This document shows positions 31,621 through 31,749 of a stretch of DNA of 60,744 nucleotides, one piece after another. Under the pieces are notes generated by a model. It saw only the letters and a list, made by a program, of their open reading frames with translations, was not told the DNA's origin and did no database searches. The DNA lies in contig JAGVWA010000007.1 in NCBI GenBank assembly GCA_018304505.1, positions 1 through 60,744 on the forward strand, written 5' to 3'. Numbering within the stretch: the stretch's first letter is position 1; each line of letters starts with the position of its first letter. The stretch is from Nanobdellati archaeon (lineage in GTDB: Archaea; B1Sed10-29; JAGVWA01). A program made the position numbers and the translations under genes.

Positions 31621-31749
31621 ATGGACTTGAGTCTAGGTACAACCACGTATGGTGGTTGGGAAGCAGACGGCTGGGAGAAAGACAACTGGAAAAGTGACAG
31701 CGATGGGATAGACCACTGGAAGGCAACCGACAGGGGGCAGGGCCAGTAG
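31621..31749 (+). CDS. Putative RiPP precursor peptide, 42 aa, Trp-repeat (not in ORF track)
   Basis: MDLSLGTTTYGGWEADGWEKDNWKSDSDGIDHWKATDRGQGQ; GGAGGT Shine-Dalgarno 6 nt upstream; ATG directly follows the upstream stop; lies immediately before a radical SAM/SPASM gene. Confidence 0.75.
   Translation: MDLSLGTTTYGGWEADGWEKDNWKSDSDGIDHWKATDRGQGQ

Follow-up and report, generated by a model that had tools for sequence, protein, structure and literature searches.

Does the 42-codon open reading frame (ORF) at positions 31,621 to 31,749 of contig JAGVWA010000007.1, from the Nanobdellati archaeon assembly GCA_018304505.1, encode the precursor of a ribosomally made peptide that is modified after translation (RiPP), and if so, what could happen to its tryptophan residues? 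The contig was analyzed from position 1 to 60,744, and this whole stretch of 60,744 nucleotides is called the window. The ORF is the second of four genes on the plus strand, which encode a phosphoenolpyruvate (PEP)-utiliser mobile domain ("swivel" domain), the peptide, a radical S-adenosylmethionine (rSAM) enzyme of the SPASM type, and an orphan helical protein, hereafter called the partner. An earlier note, made from the letters of the DNA, had described a precursor-like peptide with several tandem modification sites behind a short leader and had tied it to the rSAM gene. Conservation supports this description: four lineages have kept both the gene set and the motif of the peptide, and in one of them the partner is fused to the enzyme. 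We consider it fairly probable that the ORF is a genuine RiPP precursor gene, and that its product is the substrate of the rSAM enzyme and the partner, which would cross-link Trp to Asp or Asn at +3 or +2.

Sequence features of the window peptide

Translation of window:31621-31749(+) yields MDLSLGTTTYGGWEADGWEKDNWKSDSDGIDHWKATDRGQGQ followed by a stop codon, and the earlier reading of the letters was borne out. Trp residues are present at positions 13, 18, 23, and 33 of the 42 amino acids (aa), and each of them is directly followed by Glu or Lys. The motif D-x-W occurs three times (D16, D21, and D31), and the motif W-x-x-D also occurs three times (W13, W18, and W23). The perfect Shine-Dalgarno (SD) motif that had been noted is GGAGGT, 6 nt 5′ of the ATG. 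It falls within the last codons of the swivel-domain gene, and the TAA stop codon of that gene abuts the ATG of the peptide gene. The genome (G000; 917,116 bases on 21 contigs, 92.8% complete) makes modest use of such motifs, as GGAGG or GAGGT was found upstream of 26 of 533 long ATG ORFs, compared with 1.3% of random 15-mers.

The composition of the peptide was compared with that of all 5487 ORFs of 30–60 aa in the genome. At least four Trp residues were present in 55 of them, and therefore, the Trp count by itself is weak evidence. Two or more W-x-x-[DN] motifs were found in three ORFs, and the window peptide was the sole ORF with three. However, shuffling of the window peptide core alone produced at least three such motifs in 395 of 20,000 shuffles, and therefore, the pattern in a single sequence is merely suggestive. 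The significance of the Trp/Asp pattern comes from the comparative data across the relatives. A second genomic ORF with two W-x-x-[DN] motifs, C11:9669-9824(-), was dismissed as an artefact, as it lies out of frame inside an ORF of 956 aa.

The exact sequence of the window peptide is present in a large predicted-protein collection, where it stems from 7 contigs, and therefore, at least one gene caller calls the ORF. A word-index protein search with the peptide matched only the peptide itself, and neither this search nor Pfam nor the ESM Atlas gave a usable family or fold.

Conservation of the peptide with the gene cluster

Relatives of the rSAM enzyme surfaced only when 1.84 billion representative proteins were scanned exhaustively with HMMER, while a word-index protein search gave nothing closer than 23% identity. 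Of the 6342 HMMER matches at E ≤ 1e-3, only 7 reached E ≤ 1e-30, including the enzyme itself. The others were P0007 (41% identity), P0008 (40%, 736 aa), P0009 (39%), and P0010–P0012 (29–32%). The family was not found in 60 related genomes searched at E ≤ 1e-20, nor in the other 30 genomes of the phylum searched at E ≤ 1e-30.

The DNA of sister loci was recovered by pattern scans with the alignment of the seven rSAM sequences. Identity to the window enzyme is 37% for locus L007, from a metagenome-assembled genome of Candidatus Woesearchaeota, 42% for L006, L008, and L009, and 39% for L010 and L011. The proteins of L006, from an uncultured archaeon, are identical to those of the metagenome loci L008 and L009, and L010 equals L011; each group was counted as one lineage. 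The metagenome loci L012–L015, with distant rSAM enzymes of 20–29% identity, were excluded from all peptide counts.

An rSAM gene, a homologue of the partner gene, and a swivel gene are present in each of the three other lineages. The earlier note had named lack of conservation in syntenic loci as grounds for giving up its reading; Trp-rich ORFs of 39–46 aa were found in the clusters of all three other lineages. Where the flank is present, there is one such ORF in L007, and there are two each in L008 and L010. In L007, the rSAM gene is followed by the genes for a 311-aa partner and a 115-aa swivel protein, and the peptide MELTNFVNGTNSHPNWDDWGQNNGGWINDGWDDRWCCDRSSIE, preceded by GGAGGTG, starts 2 nt after the swivel stop codon. 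In L008 and L009, the peptide MELCVTNKKFINFTEEITVTDTWQGDKWDNHSWSSDWSCDY is encoded 18 nt upstream of the rSAM gene, and L008 contains a second copy, MELCVVDNKFLKENGPVVGDTRSDWTGDYWNNDWSCDYN, about 350 nt further upstream. The genes for the rSAM enzyme, a 320-aa partner, a 620-aa protein, and a 114-aa swivel protein follow. In L010 and L011, the two peptides MELIDKNNEKYRFDHPNWGDNWGTNHGGWNGDGWTDKWDNNNK and MILHINNQVGYNNWKGNVWDNEAPSPWSGDCWPDNNYSDSWIDSSP are followed by a 736-aa fusion of rSAM enzyme and partner and by a 111-aa swivel protein. Precursor duplication, which occurs here in two lineages, is typical of RiPP clusters.

The gene order is thus swivel-peptide-rSAM-partner in the window, rSAM-partner-swivel-peptide in L007, and peptide(s)-rSAM-partner-swivel in L008 and L010. 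As the order differs between lineages, the association is not a simple inherited order. The SD-like motif GGAGGT(G) precedes the peptide in both loci in which the peptide comes after the swivel gene (window and L007), and it is not present at the 3′-end of the L006 swivel gene, where no peptide comes after. The specificity of the motif was analyzed with all ORFs of 30–90 aa. At least two W-x-x-[DN] motifs were present in 1 of 480 ORFs in the window, 1 of 53 in L007, 2 of 29 in L008, 1 of 26 in L009, and 2 of 41 in L010, and every one of these ORFs is a cluster peptide. As is generally expected of a RiPP precursor, the ORF is short, lies beside the enzyme gene, and is conserved with the enzyme in four lineages and three gene orders.

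Motif of the peptide family

In an alignment of the six peptides, M1, L3, W13, W18, and W23 (numbering of the window peptide) are invariant in all six. The sister peptides start with M-[ED/I]-L, and the leaders are short, with 12 to 24 residues in front of the first Trp. The peptides contain 3–5 Trp residues, with 4 to 9 residues between the second and the third invariant Trp. An Asp or Asn is found at +3 after the first and the third invariant Trp in six of six peptides. After the second invariant Trp, it is found at +2 in five peptides and at +3 in the window peptide. Of all 26 Trp residues of the six peptides, 19 have an Asp or Asn at +3 and 11 have one at +2; 25 have it at one or both of these positions, and 17 have it at −2. 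In shuffled cores, the mean number of Trp residues with Asp or Asn at +2 or +3 was 13.0 (sd 2.4), and none of 20,000 shuffles reached 25, a statistic that overstates independence because the six peptides are related.

The L007 peptide contains no Lys, and the window peptide and the first L010 peptide contain no Cys. Therefore, neither Lys-Trp links nor thioethers are the shared chemistry. This removes the streptide-like Lys-Trp link, which the earlier note had brought into play, as the chemistry of the family. Another of its suggestions, three-residue W-x-K/S/A cyclophanes, found no support either, as the residues at +2 of the window peptide (A, K, S, and A) are not conserved in the relatives, whereas the Asp/Asn at +3 is. 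The suggestion of D-x-W links fared better: such links would be possible at those Trp residues that have an Asp or Asn at −2, but W-x-x-[DN] is better conserved than this arrangement, above all at the first of the invariant Trp residues.

The rSAM/SPASM enzyme and the partner

The enzyme belongs to the radical SAM superfamily (PF04055, E 1.9e-11, 44.8 bits versus a cut-off of 29.5), and PF13353 is also matched. The motif C-x3-C-x2-C is located at residues 56–63, and all 7 aligned sequences, that of the window enzyme included, share C56, C60, and C63. The C-terminal region contains the Cys pattern of a SPASM domain, which binds two auxiliary 4Fe-4S clusters, C335-x2-C338-x5-C344-x3-C348. In total, the seven-sequence alignment revealed eight further invariant Cys residues, namely C275, C280, C298, C335, C338, C344, C348, and C366. 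About 45 residues precede the rSAM core, and the N-terminus aligns with the homologues from residue 3–4 onward, so that there is no N-terminal extension of the size of a RiPP recognition element (RRE). The best NCBIfam matches are all peptide maturases, i.e., PapB (4.3e-25), HxsB, QhpD (1.3e-18), CbpB, the CXXX-repeat family, and YhhB. The solved chains nearest to the enzyme by profile are CteB (5wgg, 4.4e-22) and anSME (4k36, 1.3e-18), followed by 8vpo. The rSAM core alone also matched ChlB (9gm3, E 7.9e-14).

The partner has no Pfam, NCBIfam, or PADLOC family. Its homologues were found only in the sister clusters, the word-index protein search matched only the partner itself, and the ESM Atlas had no usable match. 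In the fusion protein of L010 and L011, residues 438–736 of L010 align with residues 19–318 of the window partner (BLASTP, 32% identity, E 4.4e-42). This fusion in one lineage argues that the two proteins act as one enzyme. The AlphaFold2 model of the partner (pLDDT 76.9, pTM 0.81) is mostly helical with one hairpin. Foldseek comparison of the model with the PDB gave 0 matches at E ≤ 0.001, and the VIA wide comparison gave only generic helical bundles, with a best Z of 6.0 (root-mean-square deviation (rmsd) 3.4, 98 residues aligned). With regard to an RRE of the PqqD type, which would have a winged-helix fold, the N-terminal 100 residues alone yielded a poor model (pLDDT 60.9), with a best VIA Z of 3.4 (rmsd 3.2, 50 residues aligned). 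A prediction of the complex of enzyme, partner, and peptide scored 0.02 versus a mark of 0.32, which is evidence neither way.

A 620-aa protein is encoded between partner and swivel protein in one lineage (L006:2244-4106 = L008:5616-7478 = L009:2432-4294). Its C-terminus is partner-like (E 3e-6 to the L007 partner), and no C-x3-C-x2-C motif is visible. In size and position, it recalls P0011 and P0012, which keep the motif, and it may be a degenerate second maturase.

The swivel-domain protein

The gene upstream of the peptide encodes a member of PF00391 (E 1.8e-18, 66.4 bits versus a cut-off of 23.1), and each of the four lineages has a homologue of it. The phosphohistidine motif GG.L.H..I..RE, including H69, is invariant in 6 of 6 aligned cluster-associated swivel proteins, two of which are from other clusters. 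PADLOC gave no match for the protein. It stands alone, without an ATP-grasp (PPDK_N) or PEP-binding domain, and the only PPDK_N ATP-grasp domain of the genome is that of the single full-length PEP synthase on contig C3. The invariant His suggests phosphoryl transfer, and there is a weak suggestion that the swivel protein phosphorylates the peptide or regulates the enzyme.

In the literature searched, which did not extend to the supplementary tables of PMC11851443 (cyclophane motifs, archaeal sequences), no paper linked swivel or PEP-utiliser domains to rSAM RiPPs. The accessible part of the literature listings on DPANN or Woesearchaeota RiPPs contained no paper on the peptide family.

Proposed modification of the peptide

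For the substrate relationship, the chemistry of the cross-link, and the role of the partner, we infer the following course. The peptide gene would be co-transcribed with the swivel-domain gene and translationally coupled to it. The position of a TATA-like box, 23 nt 5′ of the ATG of the swivel gene, may point to an operon with a short leader, and a run of eight T after the peptide gene might have the effect that peptide transcripts outnumber enzyme transcripts. The peptide would be the substrate of the adjacent rSAM/SPASM enzyme, and its short N-terminus, M-D/E-L..., would serve as the leader. Because the enzyme lacks an N-terminal domain of RRE size, the helical partner is probably its peptide-binding or scaffolding subunit. 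The enzyme would most likely abstract a hydrogen from the Asp or Asn side chain three (or two) residues after a conserved Trp. PapB and QhpD functionalize carbon atoms of Asp and Glu side chains (in Asp, the beta carbon) that belong to repeated motifs. The Asp/Asn carbon would then be joined to the indole ring, and three or four small cyclophane-type rings would be formed, each with a mass change of −2 Da. According to the excerpts available of two papers, rSAM cyclophane synthases connect the side chain of an aromatic residue with an sp3 carbon inside motifs of three to five residues (PMC11851443), and triceptides have repeated aromatic-X-X motifs (PMC12912966).

Comparison with known systems

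Judged from the sequences, the locus seems most like a triceptide or cyclophane RiPP system, yet it falls outside every curated maturase family. With the triceptides (3-CyFEs: WprB, MicB, and ChlB), as described in the same excerpts (PMC11851443, PMC12912966), it shares a short precursor, tandem motifs centered on an aromatic residue, and an adjoining rSAM/SPASM gene. In both systems, C-C links of −2 Da between an aromatic ring and a side-chain sp3 carbon would be expected. Triceptides are characterized by aromatic1-X2-X3 motifs that are repeated and in which a C-C bond joins the ring to X3. Repeated Trp motifs are also present in the peptides analyzed here, but their Asp or Asn is mostly at +3 and not at +2. 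In addition, the hosts are archaeal, and for the helical partner and the swivel gene no counterpart was found in the literature searched, as far as the sources were accessible.

Streptide (StrA/StrB/StrC), in which Lys-Cβ is linked to Trp-C7, is likewise a short peptide with a Trp-centered cross-link made by an rSAM/SPASM enzyme. The "DGW" resemblance of the window peptide is real in the letters. In KxxxW peptides, a Lys is located four residues before the cross-linked Trp. In contrast, none of the Trp residues of the window peptide has a Lys at −4, the L007 homologue is entirely free of Lys, and a quorum-sensing shp/rgg context is absent. The KxxxW motif is named, and the StrB reaction cited, in the excerpt of PMC11851443.

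Trp-containing cores that are cross-linked by rSAM/SPASM enzymes are also found in the darobactin or daropeptide and dynobactin systems (DarE, DynA), some of which have no separate RRE protein. However, none of the six peptides contains W-x-W or another aromatic-x-aromatic motif with an invariant Trp, and the closest Trp spacings are 3, 4, and 5. Aromatic1-X2-aromatic3 is the motif that defines daropeptides in the excerpt of PMC12912966.

The curated models that score best with the window enzyme are those of the ranthipeptide maturase PapB and of QhpD, and the action of these enzymes on Asp/Glu side chains fits the conserved Asp/Asn. These systems differ in that Cys thioethers are formed, while the window peptide has no Cys, and the scores are far below the cut-offs. 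The swivel protein, finally, resembles the swivel domains of PEP synthase, pyruvate phosphate dikinase, and rifampicin phosphotransferase in being a bona fide PF00391 member with a phosphohistidine motif. It differs from them in that it stands alone and is genetically tied to genes of rSAM peptide maturation.

Evaluation of the proposal and its alternatives

Several observations weigh against the proposed precursor and its Trp-Asp/Asn cross-links. The enzyme scores below every curated maturase cut-off in NCBIfam. This was true for the PapB ranthipeptide maturase (NF047865; 88.6 bits versus 340, match to residues 48–349), QhpD (66.9 versus 453), YhhB (63.5 versus 445), AmcB (48.2 versus 425), FxsB (46.1 versus 370), GrrM/OscB (38 versus 310), DynA (50.6 versus 450), and DarW (36.2 versus 650). 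Therefore, the chemistry is not transferable by homology. In addition, the Pfam SPASM domain PF13186 was not reported at E ≤ 0.1, though the Cys pattern is present. The fourth Trp of the window peptide, W33, has no Asp or Asn at +2 or +3. L006 shows no peptide, but its contig is uninformative in this respect, with only 11 bases in front of the rSAM ATG and 146 bases behind the swivel gene. A transporter or peptidase that is conserved was not seen in the ORF lists of the clusters. The codon-usage score of the peptide frame (−0.34) is no better than that of one reverse-strand frame (−0.128), but this score is uninformative because there are only 42 odd codons. Of the sequencing runs listed as containing the organism, 8 were of DNA and 0 of RNA. 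Lastly, only four lineages are available, and the statistics rest on few, related sequences.

The alternative that deserves the most attention is that the ORF is a genuine precursor of the cluster but that its product receives another modification. D-x-W links, links of Trp to the backbone, C-O or C-N links, radical epimerization, and a phosphorylation-dependent reaction driven by the swivel protein and the partner would all belong here. The enzyme is a member of no characterized family, and, according to the excerpt of PMC11851443, rSAM/SPASM enzymes make C-C, C-O, C-N, and C-S links. An Asp or Asn at −2 is nearly as frequent as at +3, and the invariant phosphohistidine motif in a conserved accessory gene hints at something beyond a plain rSAM cross-link. 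Nevertheless, we regard another modification as rather unlikely, since the first invariant Trp has its Asp/Asn at +3 in six of six peptides and at −2 in only two. Moreover, the strict invariance of three Trp residues suits an aromatic acceptor better than epimerization, the Pfam search of the enzyme revealed no B12 or methyltransferase domain, and thioethers would not be compatible with the two Cys-less peptides.

The other alternatives deny the ORF the role of a precursor of a modified, secreted peptide. It could be the precursor of a redox cofactor or another intracellular small molecule, by a logic similar to that of PQQ or mycofactocin. This would agree with the lack of a transporter, an immunity gene, or a conserved peptidase in any of the four clusters, with the very small genomes of the hosts (0.92 Mb for G000 at its estimated completeness), and with the presence of QhpD, the maturase of a cofactor protein, among the top NCBIfam matches, although its score is far too low. 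Yet the cores vary in length, spacing, and number of Trp residues, and duplicates within one locus have diverged, whereas the cofactor precursors known to us have one fixed reactive motif. Unlike a core cofactor, the cluster was also not found in the 30 other genomes of the phylum or the 60 relatives searched, so that a cofactor precursor appears improbable. It is more improbable still that the peptide is a real small protein, e.g., a regulator or a structural peptide, that merely neighbors the cluster and is not a substrate of the enzyme. In two lineages, it does adjoin the swivel gene instead of the rSAM gene, but it stays with the gene set through three gene orders and is duplicated in two lineages. 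It also lacks a family or fold of its own, and only the short N-terminus and the repeated W/D/N sites are conserved. A chance ORF without a product would at first sight be compatible with the Trp content, which about 1% of the small ORFs of the genome attain, and with the uninformative codon usage. However, three other lineages, with rSAM enzymes of only 37–42% identity, contain homologous ORFs that share the invariant residues, the motif statistics (specificity control and shuffles) argue against chance, and the SD-like site is kept in L007; we therefore give this explanation practically no credence.

If the peptide is modified by Trp-Asp/Asn cross-links as proposed, W-x-x-D/N repeats would be a new precursor motif, and the enzyme would represent a new and very rare rSAM/SPASM clade. 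Two accessory proteins would be added that have no link to RiPP chemistry in the papers searched, and archaea with ultra-small genomes in groundwater and soil metagenomes would be seen to invest in peptide natural products. A coupling of phosphoryl transfer to radical peptide cross-linking, if true, would be new enzymology. A more far-reaching idea, which we put forward tentatively and with more doubt than confidence, is that of a new RiPP class of DPANN-type archaea. In such a class, an rSAM/SPASM enzyme would depend on two further proteins, the orphan helical subunit and the phosphohistidine swivel protein that stands alone, for installing Trp-Asp/Asn cross-links. The locus would then exemplify an undescribed, more widespread module of rSAM enzyme, small peptide, and swivel domain, with phosphohistidine swivel proteins as integral components of a family of archaeal rSAM peptide pathways. 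The system is small, with a 42-aa peptide and three proteins, and is thus directly testable by co-expression and mass spectrometry.

Organization and surroundings of the cluster

The positions of the genes and DNA elements of the cluster are listed in Table 1. From general knowledge of archaeal promoters, the TATA-like box is a possible promoter of the operon. The hairpin and the T run after the peptide gene are a possible partial terminator, but the fold of the hairpin does not stand out (z = −1.21; a fold as good was reached in 25 of 200 shuffles). An Rfam search revealed nothing in the cluster, and the sole match in the window at the gathering threshold was a tRNA at 55905–55976 (+). The protease-like ORF upstream of the cluster was matched by PF13975 (24.7 bits) and PF13650 (24.2 bits), both below cut-off, and by the PADLOC model PDC-M52B (E 2.7e-7). 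It is no more than a possible leader peptidase, and no counterpart was found in the ORF lists of L007, L008, and L010.

Table 1. Genes and DNA elements of the peptide cluster in the window
Feature	Position	Strand	Remarks
TATA-like box TTTATATA	31245..31252	+	read directly; 23 nt 5′ of the swivel-gene ATG
Stand-alone PEP-utiliser mobile ("swivel") domain gene, 114 aa	31276..31620	+	PF00391
SD-like hexamer GGAGGT	31609..31614	+	GGAGGTG also before the L007 peptide
Trp/Asp-rich candidate precursor, 42 aa	31621..31749	+	probable leader 1–12; core with invariant W13, W18, W23, plus W33
Terminator-like hairpin (31759–31776), then T8 (31783–31790)	31759..31790	+	pattern scan; between peptide and rSAM genes
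Radical SAM/SPASM enzyme, 424 aa, TTG start	31809..33083	+	PF04055, PF13353
Orphan, mostly helical partner, 319 aa	33080..34039	+	start overlaps rSAM stop
Clan-AA aspartic-protease-like (retropepsin-like) ORF, 144 aa	30744..31178	+	directly upstream of the cluster

On one side, the cluster is flanked by a gene for a DUF6036 nucleotidyltransferase that overlaps a gene for a TrmB/MarR-type helix-turn-helix (HTH) protein, both within 28702–30316 (−). The TrmB-like HTH gene precedes the swivel gene by about 1 kb and is encoded on the opposite strand. On the other side follows a 299-aa ORF at 34287–35186 (−) with weak similarity to AbiH/PDC-S21. The G+C content is 0.36–0.42 on both flanks of the cluster versus a genome mean of 0.47, and the flanking genes together with this drop hint at a variable island. 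An Nre gene is located at window 27288–28490, in agreement with the archaeal nature of the genome. In the sister locus L010, a gene for a Csa3/HFX_2341-like CARF-type regulator (L010:4179-4784) lies about 0.85 kb upstream of the two peptides.

DNA of the organism was found in groundwater and soil metagenome runs. The reads of 4 of the 8 DNA runs (X3–X6) gave identical contigs, with no variants in the cluster.

Other clusters with rSAM and swivel genes

The genome encodes four more swivel domains. One is that of the PEP synthase on C3, and two of the other three are located in rSAM clusters. The 0.92-Mb genome thus contains three clusters with rSAM and swivel genes, and the candidate peptides differ, being Trp-rich, Tyr-rich, and Cys-rich, respectively.

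The cluster with the Tyr-rich peptide, L002 (G000:C15:37940-41968), is probably another set of precursor and maturase, paralogous to that in the window by sequence. A 46-aa Tyr/Trp-rich ORF, MKAFNVSLNNLPITAAYPESGKWIDTYGDTGGQYVQTSYSEHYTEN, at L002:1111-1251 lies 18 nt upstream of an rSAM/SPASM gene (L002:1270-2610), the product of which has 24% identity to the window enzyme (E 5e-22). The gene for a 132-aa swivel protein (L002:2576-2974; 34% identity to the window swivel protein, E 3e-13) overlaps the rSAM gene, and a 261-aa gene unrelated to the window partner follows (L002:2967-3752). The third rSAM enzyme (C15:3756-5075) has 439 aa and an N-terminal extension of roughly 115 aa. A possible Cys-rich small ORF (C15:5041-5187) lies between its gene and that for a 349-aa protein (C15:5191-6240). 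The latter, in which a swivel domain at the N-terminus is fused to a helical C-terminal part, has a 58%-identical paralogue at C18:13396-14442. A further set was observed in the sister locus L009 downstream of the Trp-peptide cluster, where genes for a 359-aa rSAM enzyme, an unknown protein of 271 aa, and a PF00391 swivel protein of 101 aa occupy L009:5029-7230.

In addition, 14 small swivel loci (L054–L067) from genomes of the same order (G001, G004, G006, G008, G010, G011, G015, and G016) were examined. An rSAM-like ORF was found beside the swivel gene in five of the 14 (L057, L061 (twice), L064, L065, and L067). Most of the 14 loci pair the swivel gene with an unknown protein of 280–370 aa that has no Pfam family; these proteins form several families, among which BLAST detected no mutual similarity. 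One of the families, from L060, L062, L063, and L066, had no PDB sequence match of note. By BLASTP and hhalign, the family of the window partner showed no link to this family, to the 261-aa protein of L002, or to the 349-aa fusion on C15. The repeated co-occurrence of rSAM maturases and phosphohistidine swivel domains could reveal a new control or extension of radical peptide chemistry. Stand-alone small swivel-domain genes are common in this archaeal order.

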